From assembly GCA_965649055.1 (NCBI GenBank), contig CBFGJG010000052.1:1-12702 (forward strand): a stretch of 12,702 nt of DNA, given 5' to 3'. Both the position numbers and the translations under genes were made by a program. Under the pieces are notes generated by a model. That model was given only the letters and a program-made list of their open reading frames with translations, had not been told where the DNA came from and made no database searches. Below, piece by piece: positions 1 to 12,702 of this stretch (within the stretch, counting starts at the first letter, position 1; the number at the start of each line of letters is the position of its first letter). The stretch comes from a candidate division WOR-3 bacterium. Its GTDB lineage: Bacteria > Hydrothermota > UBA3072 > B12-G15.

Positions 1-1
1 A

Positions 2-154
2 TATATACCATCTATAATAATTGATGAGATTTATGATAAAATTTTTAGACAAAACTTAAATGTTAATTATAATAAATTGTACCACCATGTCCCTGATCTT
101 CCCGTAATGTATTATCTTAAAATAAAAAAATTATTTAAATCTTCTCAGAGATAG
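2..154 (+). CDS. 3' end of an unidentified protein entering from the left (partial; not in the ORF track)
   Basis: Frame starting at base 2 is open for 50 codons: YIPSIIIDEIYDKIFRQNLNVNYNKLYHHVPDLPVMYYLKIKKLFKSSQR, then TAG at 152-154. An open stretch this long is unlikely by chance in such AT-rich DNA. No family recognised. Confidence 0.55.
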   Translation, partial: YIPSIIIDEIYDKIFRQNLNVNYNKLYHHVPDLPVMYYLKIKKLFKSSQR

Positions 155-1540
155 ACCAATTAAAAACCAGTAAATTGGTGTTGTGCTATAAAGATTAAGA
201 CCTCCAACTACAAAATATGTTAAGATTAAAGAAAAAATAATAACATACAATTCATTTGATGTCTCTTTATAATTAACATAACAATTTTTAAGAGAAAGAA
301 TTATTATAACAAGATACATTATACCACCGATAAGACTTGTGGTAGCAATAAAGGAAAAAAAAGGAATTTCAAAGCCTATTATCTTACTCCCAAATTTCCA
401 CGCAGCAAGGGTAGTGGTTCCCAAACCTGTTCCAAAAGGATATCTCGAAATCAACCTTGGGAGATAAATAAATTCACCAAATCTTTCCCAGACAGTTGAT
501 TCAGATGAAAATGGATCAAATATTCCTTTTATTACATGATAATAAACCCTTGATATATTAACAGGTAAAACATGGTAAAAAGAAGTAACAGAGATTGAAG
601 AGATAAGCAAAGAATAAAATAGGAAGAAAAAGAAACCGATCAGTAATGCAAGTTTTTTATCCTTAATATAGACGAATACCTGGAATACCAAACCAAAAAA
701 TAACATTATGATAATCCCCCTTATTCCTTCGGTTATAGCCGCATAAAAAATAATTATCATTGCTAAAAAATACAATGATAATCTTAATTTCTTTAAAAAG
801 AAACCAGAAGCAATGAGAAAGGCAAGCAGTATATAATTCCCATATTCCTGTGGACTTGCAAATGTTGAAATTGGACGAACAAATGAATGTATTGCAATTG
901 AACTAAATTTTTCAATTTCCATTTTTGCATAAACCCATTTCCATTCAAAATTTGCAAAACCAAACAAACCTTGTTTAATTCCATAAATTGAACATATAAC
1001 ACCTATAACTAATATTATTCTAAAAATACTTCTTACCTTATACTCCTTATCAAACATTAATGCGAAATAAAACCATAACATCGGAATAATCCAGAATTTT
1101 GCACCACCTAATCCAACCAAGATTGAACCCTGGGATGGGTTAAACATCTGCAAAATCATTAGAATAAATAGCAAAGTGAAAAATCTACCTATGTATGATT
1201 CTTTAATAACTTTGAATATCTCCCTCCTTTTTACAAGTATAATGATAATAAAGAATGTTAAAACAAAAATATCTGAAAGTATATTTATCAAATCTATTCT
1301 AACATAAGGGCTGAAAATGTACATTATCCTTCTCAGTAAACCAATAAATGGGGTTAGAATGAATAATGCTATAATTATTTTTTCCCTGAAAATCAAACAG
1401 ATGGATAAAGAAATAACTATAAAAAAAATAATATAATTTCTTATATCTCCTTTAATAATAAAAAAAAATGTAAAAAATATAATAATTAAGAAAAATATAA
1501 GAATTAAAAGACTCTTAAAACCTTTATTGTCAAAAAACAT
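131..1540 (-). CDS. O-antigen ligase/polymerase-like (Wzy_C-type) polytopic membrane protein
   Basis: 469 aa with many hydrophobic segments. Contains R-x-x-STF-x-x-P (RPISTFASPQEYG), an RG motif after a helix pair (TEGIRG), and a loop Arg followed by P-x-G-x-G-L-G (ERFGEF...YPFGTGLGT), typical of the WaaL/Wzy superfamily. Confidence 0.7.
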   Translation of the reverse strand: MFFDNKGFKSLLILIFFLIIIFFTFFFIIKGDIRNYIIFFIVISLSICLIFREKIIIALFILTPFIGLLRRIMYIFSPYVRIDLINILSDIFVLTFFIIIILVKRREIFKVIKESYIGRFFTLLFILMILQMFNPSQGSILVGLGGAKFWIIPMLWFYFALMFDKEYKVRSIFRIILVIGVICSIYGIKQGLFGFANFEWKWVYAKMEIEKFSSIAIHSFVRPISTFASPQEYGNYILLAFLIASGFFLKKLRLSLYFLAMIIIFYAAITEGIRGIIIMLFFGLVFQVFVYIKDKKLALLIGFFFFLFYSLLISSISVTSFYHVLPVNISRVYYHVIKGIFDPFSSESTVWERFGEFIYLPRLISRYPFGTGLGTTTLAAWKFGSKIIGFEIPFFSFIATTSLIGGIMYLVIIILSLKNCYVNYKETSNELYVIIFSLILTYFVVGGLNLYSTTPIYWFLIGLSLRRFK

Positions 1541-1546
1541 ATAGAT

Positions 1547-1574
1547 ATTTTATATACCTGAAAATATAAGTCAA
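1547..1574 (-). promoter_or_regulatory. sigma70-type promoter for the O-antigen ligase-like gene, leaderless geometry
   Basis: Minus strand reads TTGACT (1574-1569) - 16 nt - TAAAAT (1552-1547) - 6 nt - ATG (1540). No Shine-Dalgarno sequence. Confidence 0.65.
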
Positions 1575-1579
1575 TATAT

Positions 1580-1607
1580 TTGACAATTTTTTAAAAATTA
1601 ATATCAT
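1580..1607 (+). promoter_or_regulatory. sigma70-type promoter for the class-V PLP enzyme, leaderless geometry
   Basis: TTGACA (1580-1585) - 16 nt - TATCAT (1602-1607) - 6 nt - ATG (1614). No Shine-Dalgarno sequence. Confidence 0.7.
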
Positions 1608-1613
1608 TAAATA

Positions 1614-2717
1614 ATGACAGAATTTTGCATTCCTAAAGAGAAAATCTACTTCAATTGGGCATCAACGGGTCTTATTCCACAAAAAACAAAAAATTCTATG
1701 ATATCATTAATAAATTACTTATCAGAAATAGGTAGCCCGGAAAAGGAATTTATAGAAGAAATAGTTGAAAACTTGAGAAAAAATGTCTCAACACTTCTCA
1801 ATACTTCACCGGAAAACATTGCTTTAACACACAATACCTCCGAAGGAATTATTATTGCCCTTTTGAACTTATTAAACGAAAATGATAAAATAATTTGTAT
1901 GCAGGATGCATTCCCTTCAACAACCTACATAGTAAATTACAATTTCCCACAAAATGAAAAAATTTATTTAAAATTTAACTATAAAAATCCAGTCGAGGAT
2001 ATTAAAAGAAATTTGAAAACAAAGGTAAAGGCTGTAGTTCTTGATCTTGTTAACTATTCTGATGGCACCTATATAGATTTGAAAGAGTTAGGAGAATTCT
2101 TAAAAGAGAAAGAAATCAGCCTTGTTGTTGACGGGATACAGGGTATTGGATGTTTTCCCTTCAATCCTTCTGAATTTAATGTGGACTTCCTTTCTGTTGC
2201 AGGAACAAAATGGCTTCTTGGAATCTTTGGTTCTGGTTTTCTTTATATAAATCCTGACAAACAAAAAAAAATAAAAAAGATATATACAGGCTGGCTTGGT
2301 GCAGAATGGAAGAATTTTTCGGATTTTTTTAATCTTCCAGAACCATACGATGATGCAAGAAGATTTGAAACAGGAACAAAAAATATTATAAGCTTTAAAG
2401 GATTAAGTGAAAATATTAAATTAATTTTAGGGCTTAAACTTAACAATATATCTTCAAAAATCACCTCACTGAAAAATTATTTTATAGAAAATATTAAACA
2501 ACTGGATTTCATAGTTATAACTCCTGAAGATTCAATCTCTGGAATAGTATCTGTAAAGCATAAAAAAATACCATCCCAGGAATGGTTTAATTTTCTTAAA
2601 TCTAATAATATCTTTATTTCCCTAAGAAATGACGCCTTAAGATTTTCTTTTCATTATTTCAACAATATTATAGAAATTGACAAAACCCTTAATATTATTA
2701 AGAAATTTCTTGACTAA
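1614..2717 (+). CDS. Aminotransferase class V-fold PLP-dependent enzyme (desulfurase/kynureninase-like fold, substrate unknown)
   Basis: IYFNWASTG, NTSEG, VVDGIQGIG (PLP Asp173), DFLSVAGTKWLLG..GSGFLY (PLP Lys199), RFETGT, LRFSFHYFN. Confidence 0.85.
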   Translation: MTEFCIPKEKIYFNWASTGLIPQKTKNSMISLINYLSEIGSPEKEFIEEIVENLRKNVSTLLNTSPENIALTHNTSEGIIIALLNLLNENDKIICMQDAFPSTTYIVNYNFPQNEKIYLKFNYKNPVEDIKRNLKTKVKAVVLDLVNYSDGTYIDLKELGEFLKEKEISLVVDGIQGIGCFPFNPSEFNVDFLSVAGTKWLLGIFGSGFLYINPDKQKKIKKIYTGWLGAEWKNFSDFFNLPEPYDDARRFETGTKNIISFKGLSENIKLILGLKLNNISSKITSLKNYFIENIKQLDFIVITPEDSISGIVSVKHKKIPSQEWFNFLKSNNIFISLRNDALRFSFHYFNNIIEIDKTLNIIKKFLD

Positions 2718-2738
2718 TAAAATCTTTTTAATAAAAAT
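2710..2738 (+). promoter_or_regulatory. possible promoter for tdh-kbl overlapping the upstream stop codon
   Basis: TTGACT at 2710-2715, then TAAAAAT at 2732-2738 (16-nt spacer to TAAAAA). The -10 element is imperfect. Confidence 0.35.
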
Positions 2739-2744
2739 TTCTAA

Positions 2745-2750
2745 AAGGAG
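2745..2750 (+). promoter_or_regulatory. Shine-Dalgarno site for tdh
   Basis: AAGGAG lies 6 nt before ATG 2757 and directly abuts ATG 2751, so 2757 is the more likely start. Confidence 0.7.
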
Positions 2751-2756
2751 ATGAAT

Positions 2757-3713
2757 ATGAAAAATATATTAATAACAGGTGCATGTGGACAGATAGGAAC
2801 TGAACTAACAATTTTTTTAAGGGATAAATATGGAATAGACAAAGTCATAACAAGTGATATAAGGAAGCCTTCAGAAAGTATGTCTGAATCAGGACTGTTC
2901 GTAATCCTCGATGTTACAAATATTCAAAGCGTAAAAGAAACAGTTCAAAAATACAATGTTGGATGTATATATCATCTTGCCGCTATTCTTTCGGCAACAG
3001 GAGAAAAAAATCCTGAACTTGCGTGGAATGTAAATATGAACGGTCTTTATAATATCCTTGAAGTATCGAGAGAATATAAATGTGCTGTTTTCATTCCAAG
3101 TTCTATTGCTGTCTTCGGCCCTGAAACCCCAAAAAATAAAACTCCACAGGATACAATACAAAGACCTACTTCTATTTACGGAATAACAAAGGTTGCAGGT
3201 GAACTACTTGCAGATTACTATTACAAAAAATACGGTGTAGATACAAGGGGGTTAAGATATCCCGGACTGATTTCCTATCTTACCCCACCAGGTGGCGGAA
3301 CTACTGATTATGCTGTTGAGATTTTCTATGAAGCTATAAAGAACAAATCATACACATGTTTTTTAAAGGAAGACACAATGCTTGATATGATGTATATGCC
3401 TGACGCACTTGAAGCTGCTGTGAAACTTATGGAGGCAGACCCTAATAAACTGAAACACAGAAATGCTTTCAATGTTACCGCTTTCAGTATCACCCCGAAA
3501 ATCCTTGCAGAAAAGATTAAGAAATACATACCTGAATTTAAAATCACCTATAATGTTGACCCTGTAAGACAGGCAATTGCGGATTCATGGCCCAATAATA
3601 TGGATGACTCTGTTGCAAGGAAGGAATGGGGCTGGGAACCAAAGTATGACCTTGAAATGATGACAAAAGATATGATAGAAAAACTTAAAATGAAACTGAA
3701 AAAAGGAGTTTAA
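2757..3713 (+). CDS. tdh: L-threonine 3-dehydrogenase, SDR (NAD-dependent epimerase/dehydratase) type
   Basis: ILITGACGQIG Rossmann motif, HLAAILSATGE, PSSIAVFG, catalytic YGITK, LRYPGLIS, PGGGTTDYA, MMYMPD and RQAIADSWP are signature segments of SDR-type threonine dehydrogenases. Directly upstream of kbl. Start moved from 2751 to 2757 on RBS spacing. Confidence 0.88.
   Translation: MKNILITGACGQIGTELTIFLRDKYGIDKVITSDIRKPSESMSESGLFVILDVTNIQSVKETVQKYNVGCIYHLAAILSATGEKNPELAWNVNMNGLYNILEVSREYKCAVFIPSSIAVFGPETPKNKTPQDTIQRPTSIYGITKVAGELLADYYYKKYGVDTRGLRYPGLISYLTPPGGGTTDYAVEIFYEAIKNKSYTCFLKEDTMLDMMYMPDALEAAVKLMEADPNKLKHRNAFNVTAFSITPKILAEKIKKYIPEFKITYNVDPVRQAIADSWPNNMDDSVARKEWGWEPKYDLEMMTKDMIEKLKMKLKKGV
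3703..3708 (+). promoter_or_regulatory. Shine-Dalgarno site for kbl (inside the tdh 3' end)
   Basis: AAGGAG 6 nt before ATG 3715; an alternative ATG lies at 3718. Confidence 0.65.
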
Positions 3714-3714
3714 T

Positions 3715-4938
3715 ATGATGAAGAATTTAAAGAATATTCTGTTAAATGAAATTGAACAGTTAAAAAAAGAAGGACGTGCTAAAGGTAAAGAGTTTATTAT
3801 AACTAAAGTAAAAAAGCCAAAAGGTAAAGATGGAACAAGGGTTTATCTTAAAGGTTATGATAAACCATTTATAAGAATGAACTCAAATTCATATCTCGGT
3901 ATGTCTCTAAGGGAAGATATCATTGAAGAAGAAGAGAAGGTAGCAAGAAAATTTGGTGTGGGACCTGGTGCAGTCCGATTCATAAGCGGAACATATATAT
4001 ATCATAGAGAACTTGAGAAAATGCTTGCTGAGTTTCATAATCGTGAAGATGGAATGATATATAGCGCAGCATATGTTACAGTGATTGGTGTTATTTCCTC
4101 GCTCATAACCGAAGATACATGTGTTGTCAGCGATGAATTGAATCATAATTGTATTATTAATGCTATAAAACTATCAAGACCAAAAGAAAAAAAGATTTAT
4201 AAGCATCTTGATATGAAAGGACTCGAACAAATTATACTTGAATCAAAAGGGAATGTGAAAAGGATGATTATCGTAACAGATGGTATTTTCAGTATGAGGG
4301 GTGATTATGCACCTCTTGATAAGATTATGGAACTTTCTGAAAAATACAATTCACATTTCCCAGAAGATATAATTGTTATTGTTGATGATTCTCACGGGGT
4401 TGGTGCATTCGGGAAAACAGGTAGGGGGACAGAAGAGTATACGAATACGAAGGTAGATATTCTTATTGGAACATTAGGTAAGGCATTCGGAGTTAATGGC
4501 GGATATGTTGTTTCTGATGAAATTGTTACAACATATTTAAGGGAAAAAGCCATAACTTATATTTATTCTAATCCAATAACCACAGCTGAAGCTGCTTGTG
4601 CTTTAAAGGTCTTAAAATTTCTTGATAGTCCGAAGGGTAGGAAAAGATTGGAGTATTTAAGAAAACTCACTAAAAGATTTAAAGAAGGATTGGTAAATCT
4701 CGGATATGAAACGATTGAAGGAGAGCATCCTATAGTCCCGTTACTTGTAAGAGATACTCAGAAAACATCCGATCTTGTAAAATATCTTCTATCAAATGGT
4801 ATACTTGCAACAGGACTAAATTATCCTGTCGTTCCAAAGGGTGATGAGACAATAAGGTTCCAGGTTAATGCCGACCACACCGAAAAAGACATTGATTATG
4901 TCCTTAATGTCTTGAAAAAATATAAAAATAAATCTTGA
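3715..4938 (+). CDS. kbl: 2-amino-3-ketobutyrate CoA ligase (glycine C-acetyltransferase), alpha-oxoamine synthase family
   Basis: SNSYLG, GPGAVRFISGT, SDELNH, TDGIFSMRGD, DDSHGVG, TLGKAFG (PLP Lys), YPVVPKG..IR.Q. Starts 1 nt after the tdh stop, which favours Kbl over BioF. Confidence 0.85.
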   Translation: MMKNLKNILLNEIEQLKKEGRAKGKEFIITKVKKPKGKDGTRVYLKGYDKPFIRMNSNSYLGMSLREDIIEEEEKVARKFGVGPGAVRFISGTYIYHRELEKMLAEFHNREDGMIYSAAYVTVIGVISSLITEDTCVVSDELNHNCIINAIKLSRPKEKKIYKHLDMKGLEQIILESKGNVKRMIIVTDGIFSMRGDYAPLDKIMELSEKYNSHFPEDIIVIVDDSHGVGAFGKTGRGTEEYTNTKVDILIGTLGKAFGVNGGYVVSDEIVTTYLREKAITYIYSNPITTAEAACALKVLKFLDSPKGRKRLEYLRKLTKRFKEGLVNLGYETIEGEHPIVPLLVRDTQKTSDLVKYLLSNGILATGLNYPVVPKGDETIRFQVNADHTEKDIDYVLNVLKKYKNKS

Positions 4939-4962
4939 CAAAAAAAATAAAAAAATTAAACT
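4935..4962 (+). promoter_or_regulatory. strong sigma70-type promoter for the lipoprotein-LysM unit
   Basis: Consensus TTGACA (4935-4940, containing the kbl TGA stop) - 16 nt - TAAACT (4957-4962). Confidence 0.7.
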
Positions 4963-4968
4963 TAAAAA

Positions 4969-4976
4969 AAGGAGGT
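4969..4976 (+). promoter_or_regulatory. consensus Shine-Dalgarno site for the small lipoprotein
   Basis: AAGGAGGT followed by ATG at 4983. Confidence 0.85.
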
Positions 4977-4982
4977 TTTTAG

Positions 4983-5219
4983 ATGAAAAAGCTTTTTCTA
5001 ACAGGTTGTATTTTATTTGCATTTATCGGTTGCACCAAATATGCGACCAAGGAGCAGATGAACGAACTTGAACAGAGGAAGAATTCTGTGGAGGCATTGA
5101 AGACAGAAATATCAAGACTGCAGAGTGAAAAGCAGAAACTGATAGCTGAAAGAGATGCAAAGAAAGCAGAATACGAAGCACTTCAAAAAGAATACGACGC
5201 ATTGCTTCAGAAGAAATAG
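4983..5219 (+). CDS. Small coiled-coil lipoprotein with C-terminal Lys (Lpp-like architecture)
   Basis: 78 aa: MKK + hydrophobic core + lipobox FIG-C17. The mature 62 aa are almost entirely heptad repeat (L29, V36, L39, I43, L46, L53, Y64, L67, Y71, L74) and end in QKK. Consensus RBS. Confidence 0.85.
   Translation: MKKLFLTGCILFAFIGCTKYATKEQMNELEQRKNSVEALKTEISRLQSEKQKLIAERDAKKAEYEALQKEYDALLQKK
5169..5204 (+). repeat. imperfect 21-bp-period tandem repeat (one coiled-coil heptad) in the lipoprotein gene
   Basis: gaatacgaagcactt (5169-5183) and gaatacgacgcattg (5190-5204), encoding EYEAL and EYDAL. Confidence 0.55.
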
Positions 5220-5224
5220 GAGGT
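5218..5224 (+). promoter_or_regulatory. consensus Shine-Dalgarno site for the LysM protein, overlapping the lipoprotein stop
   Basis: AGGAGGT overlaps TAG 5217-5219 and suits ATG 5229. The track's GTG start at 5223 lies inside the RBS. Confidence 0.8.
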
Positions 5225-5228
5225 GAAT

Positions 5229-5657
5229 ATGAAAAAGATATTAATATTATTGATCCTTTCATTGTTGATTACTCCATTTATCTATGCAGCGGAAACAAAG
5301 CTGAAACCAGAAGAGGCACAGAAACAAATCCAGTATTACACGGACCTTGAAAATCAATTGAAGCAACAAATCGAAAATGAGAAACTTGAAATAGAGGCAC
5401 TCAAGGGAGAAATAAGAGGTCTTGAAGAAAAAATACAAGATCTTAAAGCAAAGATTGAAGAGCTTAAAGCAAAATTAGCGGAAGTGTATTACATTGTCAA
5501 ATGGGGTGACTGGCTTTCAAAACTTGCAGAATATCCAAATGTTTATGGAAAAGGTCAATATAGAAGGTGGAGAGATATTTATAATGCAAACAAAAATCTA
5601 ATAAAAGATCCAGACCTTATACTTCCTGGTTGGAAACTAAAAATACCAAAACCATAA
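5229..5657 (+). CDS. Secreted coiled-coil protein with C-terminal LysM peptidoglycan-binding domain
   Basis: Sec signal peptide (MKKILILLILSLLITPFIYA), roughly 55-aa heptad repeat, then YIVKWGDWLSKLA...YG....WRDIYNAN...IKDPDLILPGWKLKIP, matching the LysM pattern YxVxxGDxLxxIA...I.xAN....P.LI.PG..L.IP. Confidence 0.9.
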   Translation: MKKILILLILSLLITPFIYAAETKLKPEEAQKQIQYYTDLENQLKQQIENEKLEIEALKGEIRGLEEKIQDLKAKIEELKAKLAEVYYIVKWGDWLSKLAEYPNVYGKGQYRRWRDIYNANKNLIKDPDLILPGWKLKIPKP

Positions 5658-5682
5658 AAAAAATATCAGAAAACAACAAAAT

Positions 5683-5720
5683 AGCAGCTACTGAAAATAC
5701 TCAGTGGCTGCTTTTATTTT
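5683..5720 (+). terminator. intrinsic (rho-independent) terminator
   Basis: 12-bp stem AGCAGCTACTGA (5683-5694) / TCAGTGGCTGCT (5701-5712) with one G-U pair, 6-nt loop AAATAC, followed by TTTATTTT. Confidence 0.85.
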
Positions 5721-5723
5721 AAT

Positions 5724-6641
5724 ATGGAATATTCAAAAGAATTAAGAGATAACAGGGCATATAAAATCTTTGGTAGATATGAAGAAAACCTTTCTTTCCT
5801 TGAAGAAACCTTAAAAGTCAAAATCATACATAGAGGAGAAATAATTAAAATTATTGGTGAAAAAAATGAAGTTGATAATGCAATAACTAAGATAACAAAT
5901 ATTTTAAAAACCATAGAAAATTCTGATTTTCTGTCCATATCAGAATTAAGGATATTTATGAACGGGAAACTACAAAAGGAAGATGAAATATTCTTACCTA
6001 AAAAAGTTATAAAGCCAAAAACTGAAACGCAGAAAATTTACTTAAAGGCTATTGAAAAGAATATCATTACATTCTCAATAGGTCCTGCAGGAACTGGAAA
6101 AACATACCTTGCAGTAGCTTCGGCTTTAAAAGAATTACTTTCAAGAAAATTTTCAAGGATTATTCTTACTAGACCTGCAGTAGAAGCAGGAGAAAATCTC
6201 GGATTCTTGCCAGGCAGTTTCATAGAAAAAGTAGACCCTTATTTAAGACCTCTTTATGATGCATTGTTTGATATGCTACCAAATGAAAAGGTAAGTAAAT
6301 ATATAGAAACCGGTGTAATAGAAATTGCACCACTCGCGTTTATGCGTGGAAGAACTTTGAATGATTCGTTTATTATTCTTGATGAAGCACAGAACACAAC
6401 ACATACTCAATTGAAAATGCTTCTTACAAGATTGGGAGAAAATTCAAAGGCAGTGGTAACAGGTGATATAACACAGATAGATCTTCCCTCTACAACAGCA
6501 TCTGGACTTGTTGAGGTTCAAAAAATATTAAAGGGGCTTGAAGGTGTAGAGTTTATTTATCTAACAAATGAAGATGTTGTTCGTAATGAATATGTAAGAA
6601 GAATAGTCGAAAGATATGAGAAATTTGAACAAAATAGATAA
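5724..6641 (+). CDS. phoH: PhoH-family ATPase (YbeZ/PhoH-like)
   Basis: Walker A GPAGTGKT, LTRPAVEAGENLGFLPG, EIAPLAFMRGRTL, ILDEAQN, GDITQIDLP, DVVR. N-terminal IFG...NL..LE....KI..RG segment. Confidence 0.95.
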   Translation: MEYSKELRDNRAYKIFGRYEENLSFLEETLKVKIIHRGEIIKIIGEKNEVDNAITKITNILKTIENSDFLSISELRIFMNGKLQKEDEIFLPKKVIKPKTETQKIYLKAIEKNIITFSIGPAGTGKTYLAVASALKELLSRKFSRIILTRPAVEAGENLGFLPGSFIEKVDPYLRPLYDALFDMLPNEKVSKYIETGVIEIAPLAFMRGRTLNDSFIILDEAQNTTHTQLKMLLTRLGENSKAVVTGDITQIDLPSTTASGLVEVQKILKGLEGVEFIYLTNEDVVRNEYVRRIVERYEKFEQNR

Positions 6642-8589
6642 AGGGTTTATTTCTTCTTTTATTCTGTTATATATAATAATCAATTTATTTTATCCATATT
6701 TTTCAAGAATAATAAAATACAATGTAGGAGACATAGCAAAAGAAGATATAATAGCACCATTTGATTTCCCAGTTTTAAAAAATGAGGAAGAATTGAGAAA
6801 AGAAATGAATATAACAATATTATCTGTCCCACCTGTTTTGAAGGCTGTAGAATACTATATTGAGTTTTCAGGTTTAAAGAAAAATATACCAAATAATATA
6901 AAGAAAATTATTATAGATGCGAGGAACAAAGGAATAGTATTTGATAAAAAATCGCTACCTCAAAGTTTTGGTGATTATTATGAGATAATAAGAAATAATG
7001 AAAGTAAAATTTTATCAAAAAATGATTTTTATTCTTATAATGAGATAAAAAACTTATTGCTTTCCGAACTTCTTAAAAAATTTGATTCTACATCAGCATT
7101 TGAGATACTGAAGGAAATTGAGCCTTTTTTACAACCCAATCTTTTACTCGATATTTCTGAAACAGAAAAAAGAAGAGAAAATGCGCGGAAAACTGTTTCA
7201 AGAGAAAAATCTTTTATTAAAAAAGGTCAAACCATAGTAAGAAGAAATGACATAATAACTCAAGATATTCTTGATATAATAAATTCACTTGTTCTTGCTG
7301 AAAAAACACTAAAAAAATCAAACTTTATAAGGAAATTTTTAAAGACTCAAACTTTCATTATAATATTAATCTTGATATTTTTATTTATTTTAAAAGACTC
7401 CTGGGAAGAGTCTATGAGAAAGAAAAAATATATTATAATTAACTCAATTATAACATTTACACTTTTCTTTTTATTCCGATTGTTCCAGGAATTAGGTTTT
7501 TCTATACTTGTCCCAATATCTTGTGGAGCAATGATGTTATCACTTTTTGGAGGAATGCTCACGGGTATTATATATTCAATCTTTGTTTCTTCCGGGTTTC
7601 TTTTATTTAACCCAAATGAAAGTTTAAATATTCTTCCACTTTTATTTGGAAGTTTAGTTGGTTCTATATATATAATAAAGGTGAAGGATCGTAAAGAAAT
7701 AATAAATTTAGTAATATATGTATCACTTACAACTGGATTTATTGCTTTATCGAACGGCATAATTCAAAACAAAAGCATAATCAAGATATTTACAGATTTT
7801 ATTTTTTCAATTCTAAATGGCGGTATCTCGGTTGCAATATTGTTTTCTTTGCTTTTAGTCTTTGAGAGATTTTTCGGGATCTTTACAAATTTCTCTTATG
7901 TTGAATTTGCAAATTTAAATCAGCCTCTCTTATCAAAACTTATACTGAATGCTCCTGGAACATACCATCATTCTGTTATGGTTGGGAACCTTTCAGAAGC
8001 AGCTGCAGAAGCAATAGGAGCTAATCCAATTATAGCGAAGGTTGGGGGTTATTACCACGATATTGGAAAATTAGAAAGACCTGAATATTTTATTGAAAAC
8101 ATCAATCCACAAATAAATCCACACAATGAACTTCCACCAAAACTATCTGTTGCTATACTGAGATCACATATTATTGATGGAGTAAGTATTGCAAAAGAAT
8201 ACCATCTGCCAGACGAAATTATTAGAATTATATGGGAGCACCATGGTAATACAATAATAAGGTCTTTCTTTGAGAAGGCTAAAGAAATCTATGATTCTCC
8301 AGATGAAAAAGAATATTCTTATGAATGCCCTACCCCATCTTCAAAAGAGTCTTCAATAGTTATGCTTGCAGATTCAGTTGAGGCTGCATCTAAAAGTGCG
8401 GAATTTGAGAGTGAAGAAGATATTAAAAAACTTGTTGAAAAAGTTGTTGAAATGAAACTACAAGAAAAACAACTCGATAACGGTAACATCTCTTTAAAAG
8501 ATTTGAGCATAATAAAAGAAGTTTTTTCAAAAAGACTGATAGCAGCTTATCATACAAGAATTAAATACCCAAAAGTTTCGCTAAAATGA
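6616..8589 (+). CDS. 7TM-HD phosphohydrolase (YqfF/PgpH-like, probable cyclic-di-AMP phosphodiesterase)
   Basis: N-terminal TM, extracytoplasmic domain (GDIAKEDIIAP...IKKGQTIVRR), multi-TM region, then HD domain APGTYHHS, YYHDIGK, YFIEN, SH, EHHG, LADSVEAA. Sits in the conserved phoH-HD-ybeY order. Overlaps phoH by 26 bp. Confidence 0.88.
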   Translation: MRNLNKIDKGFISSFILLYIIINLFYPYFSRIIKYNVGDIAKEDIIAPFDFPVLKNEEELRKEMNITILSVPPVLKAVEYYIEFSGLKKNIPNNIKKIIIDARNKGIVFDKKSLPQSFGDYYEIIRNNESKILSKNDFYSYNEIKNLLLSELLKKFDSTSAFEILKEIEPFLQPNLLLDISETEKRRENARKTVSREKSFIKKGQTIVRRNDIITQDILDIINSLVLAEKTLKKSNFIRKFLKTQTFIIILILIFLFILKDSWEESMRKKKYIIINSIITFTLFFLFRLFQELGFSILVPISCGAMMLSLFGGMLTGIIYSIFVSSGFLLFNPNESLNILPLLFGSLVGSIYIIKVKDRKEIINLVIYVSLTTGFIALSNGIIQNKSIIKIFTDFIFSILNGGISVAILFSLLLVFERFFGIFTNFSYVEFANLNQPLLSKLILNAPGTYHHSVMVGNLSEAAAEAIGANPIIAKVGGYYHDIGKLERPEYFIENINPQINPHNELPPKLSVAILRSHIIDGVSIAKEYHLPDEIIRIIWEHHGNTIIRSFFEKAKEIYDSPDEKEYSYECPTPSSKESSIVMLADSVEAASKSAEFESEEDIKKLVEKVVEMKLQEKQLDNGNISLKDLSIIKEVFSKRLIAAYHTRIKYPKVSLK

Positions 8590-8972
8590 GATTAAAATTG
8601 AATGTTTTACCTATGTATAATAAAGAACTAAAAAAAGTAGCACAAAAAGTTATTAAAGGTGAAGGTATTAAGGGAGAAATTAATATAACTATTGTTGATG
8701 ATAAATATATTAAAGAATTAAATAAAAAATATCTTAGTAAAGATTCTGTGACAGATGTTATATCTTTTTATTTTAAGCAAAACGAAAATTTTGAGACTAT
8801 TGGCGGTGATATCTATATATCGATTGAGCAGGCCTCAAGACAAAAAAAGGGAGACCTAATTGACGAGCTTAAGCTTCTTGTTGTTCATGGATTGTTACAC
8901 CTTGCAGGTTATAATGATACAAGCAAAAAAGAAATTAAGATTATGAGAAAGAAGGAAAAAGAATATTTATGA
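8586..8972 (+). CDS. ybeY: rRNA maturation RNase YbeY (variant motif)
   Basis: LNKKYL.KD..TDVISF, GDIYIS, HGLLHLAGYND. ATGA overlaps at both ends. Confidence 0.92.
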   Translation: MRLKLNVLPMYNKELKKVAQKVIKGEGIKGEINITIVDDKYIKELNKKYLSKDSVTDVISFYFKQNENFETIGGDIYISIEQASRQKKGDLIDELKLLVVHGLLHLAGYNDTSKKEIKIMRKKEKEYL

Positions 8973-9877
8973 ATCTTATTTTTTTACCGATCCTCTTTTT
9001 TTTCTCATTCTTTTTTTCATCACTTGAAGCTGCTATTTTTTCCTTAAACCCTTATAAATATGTATATTTGCAGTCAGTAGGGAATAAATTAACGAAAATC
9101 GTGTTTTCATCGAAACAAAGGATATTAACCACAATACTTATATCAAACACTTTTGTAAATGTTCTTTTATCACAGATTTCTGAAAGGCTATTTTTTAGTA
9201 AGATTCCAACTTTTGCAATAACTTTATTAACTACTATTTTTATCTTAATTTTTGGTGAATATTCTCCCAAAATATTTGGAGTGAAAAGAAAAAATATTAT
9301 CTTAAAATATTCACTCCCCATATTTTTTGTTTTTTATTTCATAGAATTACCAATAAATTTTATTTTATCAATTTTTGTCCCTTTTAAGGAAGATAGGAAG
9401 ATATTTAGAGGAAAGAAATTTTTGGAAGATTTATTCATGATAAGTTCAAAAGAAGGAACTTTACAAGAGATAGAATCGAAATTTTCAAATTCAATTATTG
9501 AAATTTCTAAGATGAAAGCTATTGAAATAATGATACCTAAAGAGAAATACTATTTCATAAATGAAAATTCACGCATAGAAGATGTTTTAGCTTTTCTTCC
9601 AGCAAATATAAAAAGATTTCCCGCTTACAGAAAAGAACCTGAAAATGTAGTAGGAATAATTGACATAAAAGATATATTATGCGAAAAGGGCGAACTAAAA
9701 AAACACATAAAACCAGCATTATTTGTAAATGAAAATACCTATGTTTCAGAATTACTTAAATATCTAAAAAGAGTTAACGAAAAGATGTTACTTATTACAG
9801 ATGATAAACAGAACTTAAAAGGCGTAATAGATATTGAACATATTGAAAACGAATTTATTAAGAGGATAATGGTATAA
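8969..9877 (+). CDS. CNNM/DUF21 + CBS-pair membrane protein (CorB/TlyC family), lacking the C-terminal CorC_HlyC domain
   Basis: FFSSLEAA, TILISNTFVN, IFGEYSPK, EIMIP, RFPAY...ENVVGII..KD. Ends right after the second CBS repeat. Confidence 0.82.
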   Translation: MNLIFLPILFFFSFFFSSLEAAIFSLNPYKYVYLQSVGNKLTKIVFSSKQRILTTILISNTFVNVLLSQISERLFFSKIPTFAITLLTTIFILIFGEYSPKIFGVKRKNIILKYSLPIFFVFYFIELPINFILSIFVPFKEDRKIFRGKKFLEDLFMISSKEGTLQEIESKFSNSIIEISKMKAIEIMIPKEKYYFINENSRIEDVLAFLPANIKRFPAYRKEPENVVGIIDIKDILCEKGELKKHIKPALFVNENTYVSELLKYLKRVNEKMLLITDDKQNLKGVIDIEHIENEFIKRIMV

Positions 9878-9880
9878 TTT

Positions 9881-11017
9881 ATGATTATATTATTTATATT
9901 ATTGTTATTACTAATAATGATTTTCAACTCAGCAGAGATTGCCTTTGTCTCTTCCAATCGATATGTTATTAAAAAAATTAAAGATCGCCATAAAGTATAC
10001 GAAGTTCTATATTCTCTACTTGAAAAACCGGAAGTGTATTTTTCTGTTATTCTTACAGGGATTAACCTTTCGATAGTTTCTTTTTCAATTCTAAATTCAT
10101 TTAGACAAAACATTTTAGCTTCATCTATACTATCAACAATATTAATTCTTTTATTTGGCGAAATAATACCTAAAACTATTACTTTAAGAAAACCGGAGTT
10201 TTTTGCTTCATTTTATGCTATTCCTATAAAGTTTCTCTATTATATATTCTATCCGATTATCTTTACTATGAGGTTATTATCCCATTGGTTTTTAAAATTA
10301 TTAAGGATTGAGGAAAAAGATAAAGACATTACAAAATCTGAAATTGAATTAATACTCAGAAAGAATTTCGAGGAAAAATTATTAAAAAAAGAGGAATATT
10401 TGTTTCTTAGGAAAATAATTTCATTGAGCAACAGAAAAGTAAAGGATATTATGATTCCAAGAACAAAAATAATATCTGTGGAGATTAATGAAGGAATTGA
10501 TAAATTGTTTGAAATATATTGTAAAAAAAGATGCACAAAAATTCCTGTTTACAAAGATAATATTGATAATATAATAGGTATTGTGAATGTAAGAGAAGCT
10601 TTTAGAAGCAAGAATACTAACTTGAAGGATTTACTACTTATGCCTGTTTTTATATCCGAAAATAAATCATGCGATGAGGCAATCTTGGAGTTATTAAAAA
10701 ATGATACAAAAACTGCTATAGTTGTTGATGAGTTTGGTGGAACAGCGGGATTTATAAAACTTGATGATATTTTCATTAATTTTTTATCCGAGACTTTTAT
10801 TCATGATAAACAACAAAAAGGTTCTTTCATATTAAAAGGGGATGTTATTTTGAATACTATTGGAATAAATTCAGATGAAACAGTTTCAGCTTATATTATA
10901 AAGCATATAAAAACTATTCCAGAAGAAGGTGAATCTTTCACTATTGAAGACTATGAATTTAAAATAATAGATGCAACAGATAGAGAAATAAGAAAGGTAA
11001 TGGTGAGGAAAAAATGA
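9881..11017 (+). CDS. CNNM/DUF21 + CBS-pair + CorC_HlyC-like protein (CorB/TlyC family)
   Basis: FNSAEIA, LFGEIIPK, VKDIMIPR, KIPVYKDNIDNIIGIV, AIVVDEFGGTAG, C-terminal ETVSAYI.....IPEEGE.F....YEFKI......I.KV. Confidence 0.88.
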   Translation: MIILFILLLLLIMIFNSAEIAFVSSNRYVIKKIKDRHKVYEVLYSLLEKPEVYFSVILTGINLSIVSFSILNSFRQNILASSILSTILILLFGEIIPKTITLRKPEFFASFYAIPIKFLYYIFYPIIFTMRLLSHWFLKLLRIEEKDKDITKSEIELILRKNFEEKLLKKEEYLFLRKIISLSNRKVKDIMIPRTKIISVEINEGIDKLFEIYCKKRCTKIPVYKDNIDNIIGIVNVREAFRSKNTNLKDLLLMPVFISENKSCDEAILELLKNDTKTAIVVDEFGGTAGFIKLDDIFINFLSETFIHDKQQKGSFILKGDVILNTIGINSDETVSAYIIKHIKTIPEEGESFTIEDYEFKIIDATDREIRKVMVRKK

Positions 11018-11847
11018 GAACAATTACTTTCATAGTTTTAGGAAGCTTATTATCAGCACTTGGATTTGAACTTTTTCTTGTTCCTTTGAAAATTACACCT
11101 GGTGGTATAGGAAGCGTTGCAATTGTTATTTATAATCTATTCAAGATTCCATTCGGTCTAACCTATGCTATTCTCAATATTCCTATATTTCTTCTTGGGA
11201 TAAAAAATCTTGGTTTCAAATTTGGTTTTTTTACAATATTATCAATAGTTCTGATTTCAATATTTTCTCTTTTTATTAAATATGTTATAAGGCCACCTAT
11301 ATTAACAAGCGATGCTCTGCTTGCAAGTTTATATGGTGCCGTGTTGTTAGGTGCAGGAATTGGGTTTGTTTTTAAAGGTGGTGGTTCTACGGGTGGAACT
11401 GATATACTTGGAAGAATTATGAATAAATATACGGGAATTACCACAGGTTTGTCTATATTTATAATAGACTCATTTATAATCTGTATTTCAGGTTTTACAT
11501 TTCAGTCATTCGAATTAATACTTTTCAGTTTCATTGCTCTTTTTGTATCAAGTAAGATTATTGACACAATACTTGAAGGCGCTGATTACGCAAGAAGTGT
11601 TATGATTACGACAAAATCAGGCGAAATTGTTTCAAATGCAATTATGGAAAAACTAAATAGAGGGGCAACTTTGATAAAAGGAATAGGAATGTATACCGGT
11701 GAACCAAGAGATATAGTTATTGTTGTAATATCCATTAGAGAATTAGAAATATTGAGGTATCTTGTAAAAAGCATAGATCCAGATGCCTTTGTAGTTATAT
11801 ATAATGTTCATGAAGTTCTTGGGAAAGGATTTAGATCAAGATACTAA
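11014..11847 (+). CDS. YitT family membrane protein (DUF161 + C-terminal DUF2179)
   Basis: FLVP..ITPGG, LNIPIF, LYGAVLLGAGIG.VF..GGSTGGTDI, RGAT...G.GMYT, IDPDAFV....VHEV.G.GF. Confidence 0.9.
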   Translation: MRTITFIVLGSLLSALGFELFLVPLKITPGGIGSVAIVIYNLFKIPFGLTYAILNIPIFLLGIKNLGFKFGFFTILSIVLISIFSLFIKYVIRPPILTSDALLASLYGAVLLGAGIGFVFKGGGSTGGTDILGRIMNKYTGITTGLSIFIIDSFIICISGFTFQSFELILFSFIALFVSSKIIDTILEGADYARSVMITTKSGEIVSNAIMEKLNRGATLIKGIGMYTGEPRDIVIVVISIRELEILRYLVKSIDPDAFVVIYNVHEVLGKGFRSRY

Positions 11848-12549
11848 ATGCTTTATAAAGACGAAGGCATAATATTAAGAAATATACCTTTTAAGAATAC
11901 AAGCATTGTAAGTCATATATACACAAGGAATAATGGTAATTTATCTTTCATCATCAAAGGCTATAAAAAGAGTAAACTACTTGGGAATATTGAATCCGGT
12001 TATCATATTTCATTAGTATATTACAAAAAAGAAAACCAGGAAATGGGGATAATAAAAGAAGTTAATATTTTATCTCCATATTATAATATTAGGTGTGATG
12101 GAAAAAAGATTAAAATATTATTCTCAATATTATACTTACTTGAACATTCGCCAAGAAGTTTAAAACTATGGGATGTTAGCCTAAAAGTGATCGATTATCT
12201 CGAGAATAATAATAATTATACCATATTTGGATATTTTTTGATGAATTTTTTATACATAGAAGGTGTTTTTCCTGTTTTAAAAAAATGCAGCGTATGCGGT
12301 TCTAAAGAAATAAAGTATTTCTCAATCGTTAAAAATGGAACGGTTTGCATTGAGCATAAAACAGAAGAGGCTACTGAAATTGATGGTTGGTTTAATACAT
12401 TTTTAAGAATTTACAATGGAAAATTAACAGAATTACCACAAAATTCTTACAATTTTCTCTTAGACCTTCTGATAAGATATGGAGAATATCATCTTGGTGA
12501 CTGGGTATCGCACTTGAGAAATATATTATCACCCGATATTTCACAATAA
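11848..12549 (+). CDS. recO: DNA repair protein RecO
   Basis: N-terminal OB-fold pattern EGIILR..PF..TS.V..IYT...G.....KG, helical region, G..P.L..C-x2-C...F....G..C-x2-H zinc finger, 233 aa. recO commonly lies downstream of phoH-ybeY loci. Confidence 0.85.
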   Translation: MLYKDEGIILRNIPFKNTSIVSHIYTRNNGNLSFIIKGYKKSKLLGNIESGYHISLVYYKKENQEMGIIKEVNILSPYYNIRCDGKKIKILFSILYLLEHSPRSLKLWDVSLKVIDYLENNNNYTIFGYFLMNFLYIEGVFPVLKKCSVCGSKEIKYFSIVKNGTVCIEHKTEEATEIDGWFNTFLRIYNGKLTELPQNSYNFLLDLLIRYGEYHLGDWVSHLRNILSPDISQ

Positions 12550-12701
12550 TATTTTCCCTCTTTCCAATCTCCTACAATAATAAATTTCTTAACACCATTT
12601 TTGTACATATATTGCATATGTACATGTCCAATTATAACAACATCTATTCCCTTATTGAAATTTTTCTCAGCAAAATCTATATATTTGTTAATTTTTATCC
12701 C
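12489..12701 (-). CDS. lpxH: 3' end of a UDP-2,3-diacylglucosamine hydrolase-like metallophosphoesterase (LpxH family); partial, not in the ORF track
   Basis: Minus-strand frame from 12701 reads GIKINKYIDFAEKNFNKGIDVVIIGHVHMQYMYKNGVKKFIIVGDWKEGKYYCEISGDNIFLKCDTQSPR, then TGA (12491-12489). D..I.GHxH followed by GDW is the typical LpxH-family C-terminus. Confidence 0.75.
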   Translation of the reverse strand, partial: GIKINKYIDFAEKNFNKGIDVVIIGHVHMQYMYKNGVKKFIIVGDWKEGKYYCEISGDNIFLKCDTQSPR

Positions 12702-12702
12702 C

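Follow-up and report, generated by a model that had tools for sequence, protein, structure and literature searches.

A coiled-coil lipoprotein and a secreted LysM protein as the probable two chains of a membrane-to-wall rod in a candidate division WOR-3 bacterium

The DNA considered here (the window) is a stretch of 12,702 nucleotides from an uncultured candidate division WOR-3 bacterium (assembly GCA_965649055.1, contig CBFGJG010000052.1, positions 1 to 12,702 of the forward strand), whose genome is assembled into 85 contigs of 2.08 Mb in total and is 93.8% complete. Two small genes, referred to below as A and B, form a compact unit that is flanked by kbl (3715-4938) and phoH (5724-6641). Table 1 presents an overview of its features. 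Gene A encodes a prolipoprotein that is almost wholly coiled coil, and gene B a protein in which a signal peptide precedes one long helix and a LysM domain. We propose that A and B are, with reasonable probability, the two chains of a single envelope rod, forming a split, non-covalent tether between a membrane, probably the outer membrane, and the cell wall.

Table 1. Features of the A-B operon, numbered by position in the window
Feature	Position	Strand	Description
Putative sigma-70-type promoter	4935..4962	+	-35 TTGACA (4935-4940), 16-nt spacer, -10 TAAACT (4957-4962)
Shine-Dalgarno site, gene A	4970..4975	+	AGGAGG, from sequence
Gene A	4983..5219	+	78-residue prolipoprotein, predicted coiled coil after lipid-modified Cys; heptad repeats; ends QKK
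A signal peptide and lipobox	4983..5033	+	residues 1-17, F-I-G-C; predicted lipid carrier Cys17
A coiled-coil segment	5046..5216	+	residues 22-78; nearly indel-free across the family (alignment)
Shine-Dalgarno site, gene B	5219..5225	+	GGAGGTG; first G common to the TAG stop of A (5217-5219)
Gene B	5229..5657	+	142 residues, ATG start; signal peptide, one long helix, LysM domain
B signal peptide	5229..5291	+	about residues 1-21; likely cleavage near IYA/AE, placed without a dedicated predictor
B helix pairing with A	5307..5477	+	residues 27-83, 57 residues, unbroken (structure model)
B LysM domain	5487..5654	+	residues 87-142; YgaU/Kbp-like subtype
Putative intrinsic terminator	5683..5722	+	12-bp stem (5683-5712), then T run; divides the operon from phoH

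The product of gene A is, as a preliminary description of this DNA had stated, a 78-residue prolipoprotein with a lipobox at Cys17, Thr at +2 (Thr18), a coiled coil and a terminal Lys, all of which are found in the sequence. Cys17 is invariant in the 24 rows of an alignment of A proteins. At 38.0% G+C, gene A is richer than the window (29.3%), and the local counts given earlier (28/60 at 5041-5100 versus 13/60 at 9241-9300) are exact. Its G+C content at third codon positions (0.405) compares with 0.242 +/- 0.037 over the 1564 open reading frames (ORFs) of at least 150 residues in the genome, 0.2% of which reach 0.405; such an outlier would fit high expression. Neither A nor the helical part of B reaches the cut-off of any Pfam or NCBIfam family, and A alone found no match in a word index of 5.8 billion proteins. 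Searched against 1.84 billion representative proteins, a profile of A gives 1692 matches at E <= 0.001. Among the best 150 of these 1692 matches, 93 are small (<= 145 residues), and 89 of the 93 carry a lipobox by pattern; the remaining long coiled-coil matches are taken for noise.

The second gene had been read as coiled coil plus LysM, and a structure model and Foldseek searches agree with that reading. The model of B (mean predicted local distance difference test, pLDDT, 87.1) consists of a signal-peptide helix, the helix 27-83 and a beta-alpha-alpha-beta domain with strands at 87-89 and 136-138 and helices at 96-99 and 111-120. The domain matches NCBIfam PRK11198 (E 2.1e-14) and, among Protein Data Bank (PDB) profiles, Kbp (7pvc, E 5.5e-15). 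Against the Pfam LysM profile PF01476, B of the window scores 17.5 bits, under the cut-off of 20.9, while four of five distant relatives tested against a LysM profile score 33.9-44.7 bits and the fifth (L075) 22.4. The top Foldseek matches are all LysM at root-mean-square deviations (rmsd) of 1.2-2.7 A and include LysM of phage and injection-system baseplates. The LysM of Kbp lies at 1.2-1.5 A with 40% identity, and the nearest ligand-bound structure is CtCBM50 with GlcNAc3 (7r1l; 2.2 A, 39% identity). By membership in the LysM family, the domain is predicted to bind the peptidoglycan glycan, which contains N-acetylglucosamine (GlcNAc). In 17 of 21 aligned B proteins, a Gln follows the hydrophobic core of the signal peptide (A/G-Q), mostly with an acidic residue next to it, and cleavage there would expose the Gln. 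This resembles the 'Q-rule', which has been reported for Bacteroidetes and not for the entire Fibrobacteres-Chlorobi-Bacteroidetes (FCB) group in the text available from that report (PMC5837995).

The control signals proposed in the preliminary description, namely a near-consensus promoter, two consensus ribosome-binding sites with the second overlapping the A stop codon, and a clear terminator, can all be located. The promoter boxes match consensus at 10 of 12 positions, and the -35 box overlaps the stop codon of kbl. A scan of this A+T-rich region finds four such sites against 4.4 expected, so the signal at the single locus does not rise above chance; the promoter is accepted all the same because TTGACA is conserved across relatives. 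A perfect TTGACA lies 47-81 nt 5' of the A start in 34 of 39 loci of relatives, against 130 of 2254 (5.8%) control windows of 120 nt from the same loci. A 6-mer Shine-Dalgarno site as strong as that of gene A precedes 262 of the 1564 long ORFs of the genome (17%). The terminator scan finds one site against 0.6 expected.

That A and B form a parallel, in-register coiled coil, in which residue i of A stands beside residue i+5 of B, is strongly supported by computation. Three lines of evidence, which we consider independent, bear on this: a model of the complex, the covariation of cysteines, and the complementarity of charges at the e and g positions. For the complex model, mature A (residues 18-78) and B (residues 22-142) were supplied, each with its alignment, alongside three controls. 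The interface score (ipSAE) is 0.72 (0.72-0.73 in three runs) against 0.17 for the best control; of 157 solved complexes 116 score as high as the ipSAE mark, and of 215 mismatched pairs 2 do, counts that are only rough as a benchmark because our own alignments were supplied. The runs share at least 98% of their contacts, the partner has a pLDDT of at least 88, and the modelled interface sets A 18-78 against B 24-83, parallel and offset by +5.

Cysteines follow the same register. Among 37 pairs from relatives, 11 have a Cys in the A coiled coil, and in nine of the 11 a Cys of B lies at +5 or +4. The +5 pairs, all d-d' partners, are 32/37 in G030 and G036, 39/44 in G029, 46/51 in G031 and G037, and 67/72 in G005; the +4 pairs, an a-g' contact, are at 36/40 in G027, G033 and G039. 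These nine genomes are spread over five different groups at family or genus level. None of the 26 pairs that lack a Cys in A has one inside the B helix; in a borderline case, G040, a Cys at the far end of the B helix (about residue 86) is near a Cys in the C-terminal tail of A. Among 32 non-duplicate metagenome loci of a distant A subfamily described below, 11 have both cysteines, ten at +5 (46/51) and one at +4, and one locus has the B Cys alone. Since cysteines at four heptads obey a register that the model supplies independently, chance is a very unlikely explanation (about 1 in 60 per event). An interchain disulfide, which the Cys pairs indicate, probably locks A and B together in several lineages, and it would also fit an oxidising, extracytoplasmic location.

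The third line concerns charge. Per contact, e/g complementarity reaches +0.225 at offset +5 and lies between -0.02 and +0.07 when the register is shifted by one or two heptads. Cognate pairs have a mean score of 3.15 and A combined with the B of another genome 0.04, and in 16 of 20 pairs A-B has a higher charge score than the average of the two homo-pairs, A-A and B-B. In both families the helices are of matched length and almost free of indels in the alignments.

Several points weigh against this pairing and limit what can be said of its stoichiometry. Taken alone, the complex model would be weak evidence because the controls were unrelated proteins that had not been selected as coiled coils, and complex models pair coiled coils readily. 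In G035 and G038, a Cys at A36 has no partner in B, and related genomes are not independent samples. The packing of the a/d core does not favor A-B: the means are 9.2 for A-B, 12.1 for B-B and 7.6 for A-A, and A-B lies above the mean of the homo-pairs in none of 20 pairs. The core of B, with ideal Ile at a and Leu at d, packs best with itself. Because the core shows no preference for A-B, contacts between B chains or higher oligomers are possible, and the rod may consist of A and B at 1:1 or of mixed higher oligomers. With these qualifications, the hetero coiled coil that had been proposed from the letters of the window alone is borne out by the complex model, the Cys pairs and the charges, and the placement of LysM far from the lipid end follows from the modelled parallel register.

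The pair is also conserved as a unit. B is found in 38 of 41 genomes of relatives from 15 families and is missing from G028, G034 and G023, the last of which is 62% complete. Searched for by itself at the protein level, A turns up in 32 of the 41. In each of the 39 loci extracted (38 genomes, one of which has two loci), the neighbour of B is an A-type ORF that encodes a signal peptide, a lipobox and a coiled coil. Of 201 genomes sampled more widely from the phylum, 142 contain a match to the B profile at E <= 0.001 and 124 at E <= 1e-30. An alignment of small A-profile matches defines the distant A subfamily, and running it against a metagenome collection gave 40 loci, 36 of which have at least 450 nt downstream of A. 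In 35 of the 40 a gene for a signal peptide, coiled coil and LysM lies directly downstream. The neighbourhood survey thus agrees with the co-conservation expected by the preliminary description. B of the distant subfamily is longer (about 230-285 residues); it contains an additional central region, and LysM is present once or twice. In loci L061-L099, a conserved middle of about 80 residues (W-x-E-I-Y ... G-V-D-A-F-R ... L-S-P-E-E-L-F) lies between the pairing helix and LysM and has no match to a Pfam or NCBIfam family. The nearest Atlas clusters belong to WOR-3, Krumholzibacteriota and Cloacimonadota for B and to Ignavibacteriota and Bacteroidota for A; these serve only as leads to how widely such a tether may have spread.

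Some relatives depart from the two-gene layout, and their forms agree with a pairing of A and B. In G004 (L033:1483-2076), A and B are fused in one ORF of 197 residues that runs from the lipobox through the A helix, a linker and the B helix to LysM, without the signal peptide of B. Folded as a single sequence, the fusion gives two helices with no usable packing (predicted template modelling score, pTM, 0.25). G006 (L051) has the same fusion layout with a frameshift, which is either an assembly error or the mark of a decaying gene. In one genus (g4; L037-L046 and L050), A has its own LysM after a conserved Cys-Pro, and B carries a low-complexity insert of 20-60 residues rich in Glu, Met and Val (EEEVMEEE...) between signal peptide and helix. 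A second locus in G026 holds the A-LysM form, and LysM is doubled in the B proteins of G030, G036 and G040.

From these observations a mechanism may be outlined. By its lipobox and the enzymes of the genome, A would be exported and receive its lipid at Cys17, after which the Lol system would most likely carry it to the outer membrane, into the inner leaflet. B would be exported as well and its signal peptide removed. The helices of about 57 residues (A 22-78 and B 27-83) would then zip together in parallel, in the +5 register. At the textbook rise of 0.15 nm per residue, the rod would measure about 8.5-9 nm, close to the length of Braun's lipoprotein (Lpp). Because the register is parallel, the N-termini of both chains would be at the membrane and LysM at the far end, where, to judge by its family, it may hold peptidoglycan glycan strands non-covalently. 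The rod would thereby act as tether and spacer alongside other anchors.

The host is, by its gene content, a diderm with the machinery for lipoprotein processing and export, as had been expected: the genome contains matches to Omp85/BamA (two), Lgt, LspA and Lnt (284 bits), and a LolCE match of 365 bits stands just above its cut-off of 362. Among the envelope genes that the preliminary description had named for a check, LolCE, a Pal-like protein and OmpA-type proteins were found, and YkuD and LolA were not. LolA (PF03548) was not found in the genome with a model that also misses a Bacteroides control.

Several of these facts count against the tether as outlined. The missing LolA is one, and A may be held by either membrane. 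OmpA_C peptidoglycan-binding domains occur in all 41 relatives, with six in the source genome, including a Pal-like lipoprotein of 170 residues and barrels of about 600 residues. The gap in tethering that had been implied for organisms lacking Lpp is thus not found here, and because Pal and OmpA-type anchors are also present, the A-B pair would be an additional tether and not a replacement. B is not robustly found in three families (in f7, 2 of 19 genomes match, and no more than weakly; in f12, 0 of 4; in f23, 0 of 3), and because these genomes are 96-100% complete, the pair appears dispensable where other anchors exist. The predicted binding of peptidoglycan is also placed in question by the closest solved LysM, that of E. 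coli Kbp (YgaU), which we take to be a cytoplasmic potassium-binding protein. Kbp joins its LysM to a BON domain, whereas B is predicted to be exported and joins LysM to a coiled coil.

The same rod could instead stand in the outer leaflet of the inner membrane, as a strut or spacer between inner membrane and wall that possibly sets the height of the peptidoglycan. A parallel register puts the N-termini at one membrane, which may be either one, and a length of about 9 nm fits either gap; the undetected LolA and the sorting signals of the phylum leave room for this placement. Nevertheless, we regard it as unlikely, although it deserves more weight than the other alternatives considered below. 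The genome has Lnt and a LolCE match that passes its cut-off. Asp at +2 is the signal for retention in the inner membrane of E. coli, and the +2 residues seen in A proteins are T, G, A, V, S, I, K and R, with no Asp among them. In addition, one-chain relatives anchored by an outer-membrane barrel have the same polarity.

These one-chain relatives provide the best lead to the outer membrane. A scan of genome contigs with B gave five distant LysM matches, two of them in Elusimicrobiota (31% identity over residues 23-140). The two proteins (L027:2023-3336 and L028:53-3336; 437 and 454 residues) consist of a barrel followed by about 60 residues of helix and then by a LysM (34 bits). Their residues 43-310 match a PorV/PorP-type barrel (PF11751, 30.3 bits, cut-off 22.3), and the barrel matches NF033709 at E 1.8e-19, under the family cut-off. 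Matches that reach the last residue (437) occur in at least 17 of 101 Elusimicrobiota genomes among the matches listed; the barrel family has many paralogues, and a single genome can hold up to about 20 matches. The order of anchor, helix and LysM would equal the polarity of A-B if A is in the outer membrane. The two genomes have no clear homologue of A, the best match being 24.3 bits in an ORF of 245 residues. One-chain cousins are seen with either kind of anchor, a predicted barrel or a lipid, ahead of helix and LysM. In L028, the gene directly upstream of the barrel-helix-LysM gene encodes a protein of 649 residues, the C-terminus of which looks like a type IX sorting domain.

A further possibility is that the rod is real but mainly non-mechanical. 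It would then be a scaffold docked on the wall for positioning or regulating some other envelope machinery (a peptidoglycan hydrolase, a secretin or pilus or a type IX carrier, for example), with LysM serving only to localise it. Many LysM proteins regulate or anchor machines, as literature on NlpD and DipM indicates, and one Elusimicrobiota barrel-helix-LysM gene directly follows that of a protein with an apparent type IX C-terminal sorting tail. The dispensability of the pair in some families would be compatible with such a role. So would its place beside phoH: the operon is directly upstream of phoH in 36 of 39 loci of relatives, and among the distant subfamily nine of 15 downstream ORFs tested encode PhoH and three match the extracellular domain of 7TM-HD proteins, a deep synteny. 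On the other hand, A and B have no domains beyond helix and LysM, the surface of the helix is poorly conserved except at the pairing positions, no conserved third envelope gene lies nearby (the flanks are aspS, gdh, kbl and phoH), and the length of the helix is conserved as for a spacer. A purely scaffolding role thus appears improbable, and a tether that also acts as a spacer is preferred.

It is very improbable that A and B form no complex at all and are neighbouring paralogous coiled-coil proteins that build separate homo-oligomers. A and B do match each other weakly, some A proteins have a LysM of their own, and the ideal Ile/Leu core of B would support B-B pairing. These features are countered by Cys pairs in the +5 register at four heptads, by charge complementarity that is specific to cognate partners, by the G004 fusion and by the complex model. 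Moreover, most close relatives of A have Lys or Arg at core positions 50, 57 and 60, and because of these residues A-A pairing would clash.

Finally, the possibility that A is a divergent true Lpp or OprI, linked through its Lys to peptidoglycan by an L,D-transpeptidase, is scarcely credible, since the points in its favor, namely the length of the precursor (78 residues in both, as had been stated for E. coli, where lpp is a coding sequence of 237 nt), weak matches to NF040598 (21.2 bits for A and 22.6 for a distant relative) and a Lys at the end of 16 of the 24 short A proteins, more often than the Lys content of 17% would give, are opposed by scores far under the NF040598 cut-off of 43 bits, by the lack of any PF04728 match in the source genome with a positive E. 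coli control, by an hhalign comparison of the A alignment with E. coli Lpp that gives 43.9% probability over 35 columns of the lipobox region only, and by finding nothing in a BLASTP search against E. coli Lpp and no Lpp among the best 60 PDB profile matches of A. YkuD-type L,D-transpeptidases have no match in the source genome and are present in 19 of 41 relatives, without association to the terminal Lys (5 of 16 genomes with Lys-ending A versus 6 of 8 others). The preliminary description had allowed that the rod is perhaps also Lys-linked; such a covalent link to peptidoglycan is not supported, and the terminal Lys itself proved to be enriched without being general. Its view of Lpp as an analogue and not a homologue agrees with the searches against the LPP and OprI families: A is not a homologue by these comparisons.

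A nonetheless resembles Lpp and OprI in several features. Common to them are a predicted lipobox with lipid-modified Cys, a small and almost wholly coiled-coil lipoprotein, a similar rod length, a presumed function as tether or spacer, and a strong promoter and ribosome-binding site. Lpp is a homotrimer, and its terminal Lys is linked covalently by YkuD-type enzymes. In A-B, by comparison, the pairing is predicted to be heteromeric, a second chain with LysM makes the predicted contact with the wall, and YkuD is not found. In E. coli K-12 (L101:1422-2726), the L,D-transpeptidase gene ldtE lies directly after lpp on the opposite strand; near A-B, the window has no L,D-transpeptidase gene.

Other envelope anchors share parts of the proposed design. 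Pal and OmpA also bind peptidoglycan non-covalently through a protein anchored in the outer membrane, and both kinds occur in the same genome here. They differ in being single chains with another binding domain and no rigid coiled-coil spacer; OmpA_C recognises the peptide stem and LysM the glycan. The spanins Rz and Rz1 of phages are likewise a lipoprotein and a coiled-coil partner from adjacent genes, with intermolecular disulfides. Spanins bridge inner and outer membranes end to end, are found in lysis cassettes and lack LysM, whereas the N-termini of A and B would be at the same end and their genes are chromosomal, phylum-wide and beside phoH. A two-component spanin was rejected because the predicted pairing is parallel, side by side over the full length, and the context is one of housekeeping genes, with phoH next to 36 of 39 loci.

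The logic of OmpM/SlpA in diderm Terrabacteria, as described in PMC10628300 and PMC9388160, is the same, that is an outer-membrane anchor, a coiled-coil stalk and a non-covalent wall-binding domain. OmpM is a single chain with N-terminal SLH and a C-terminal barrel, in contrast to two chains, a lipid anchor and a C-terminal LysM, and the Elusimicrobiota barrel-helix-LysM proteins would be the one-chain equivalent of the OmpM logic. Periplasmic LysM is also described in inverse autotransporters (intimin and YeeJ), and TpgA is the wall-binding partner of the Acinetobacter adhesin AtaA (trimeric-autotransporter preprint; PMC12523085). As proposed for A-B, a periplasmic LysM or a separate periplasmic partner (TpgA) pins an outer-membrane protein to the wall. 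These systems, however, anchor adhesins, and TpgA uses an OmpA domain and a BamE-like contact in place of a full-length hetero coiled coil with a lipoprotein.

A survey of outer-membrane attachment counts four systems, Lpp, Pal, OmpA and OmpM, with Lpp only in part of the Gammaproteobacteria (10.1101/2021.05.31.446380); in the text available from it, the terms 'LysM', 'WOR-3', 'Elusimicrobia' and 'FCB' do not occur. A paper on Verrucomicrobia mentions an abundant lipoprotein in the peptidoglycan fraction. Judged by titles and the beginnings of abstracts, with subscription journals and supplements outside this scope, the papers found in literature searches give no account of a lipoprotein and a LysM protein joined in a hetero coiled coil. 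Tentatively, then, A and B may represent a fifth class of outer-membrane-to-peptidoglycan tether, a split, length-conserved and disulfide-lockable 'ruler' made of an Lpp-sized lipoprotein and a LysM protein that is widespread in uncultured relatives of the FCB group. If so, a two-chain, non-covalent tether would add a new solution to membrane attachment in large and mostly uncultured lineages, and its fixed, easily engineered length would allow the 'periplasmic ruler' idea to be tested in organisms other than E. coli. The pair may in addition offer a natural, orthogonal and register-specific heterodimeric coiled coil with disulfide variants, and hence a possible part for protein engineering.

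Turning to the neighbourhood, a 7TM-HD gene follows phoH in the window, and phoH, 7TM-HD, ybeY and corC form a cluster (5724-8972); the ybeZ-ybeY-ybeX cluster of E. coli carries lnt. The upstream neighbours of A-B vary, with kbl in the window and aspS or gdh in other genomes. A sequencing run labelled metatranscriptomic, and flagged 'probably DNA', gave two contigs of 151 nt, both inside the operon (4977-5127 with 2 differences and 5167-5317 with 0), and nothing near-identical on the remainder of 3700-6700; contigs of this kind cannot rank genes. On the minus strand, an ORF of 469 residues (131-1540) is rich in hydrophobic stretches and has no Pfam match at E <= 0.1; from its composition, it might at a guess be a multi-pass membrane protein, possibly O-antigen-ligase-like. 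Upstream of the operon, a gene of the NAD-dependent epimerase fold and one of the class I/II aminotransferase fold, both assigned by Pfam matches, occupy 2751-4938, and by names read from these matches they look like the tdh-kbl pair of threonine degradation.

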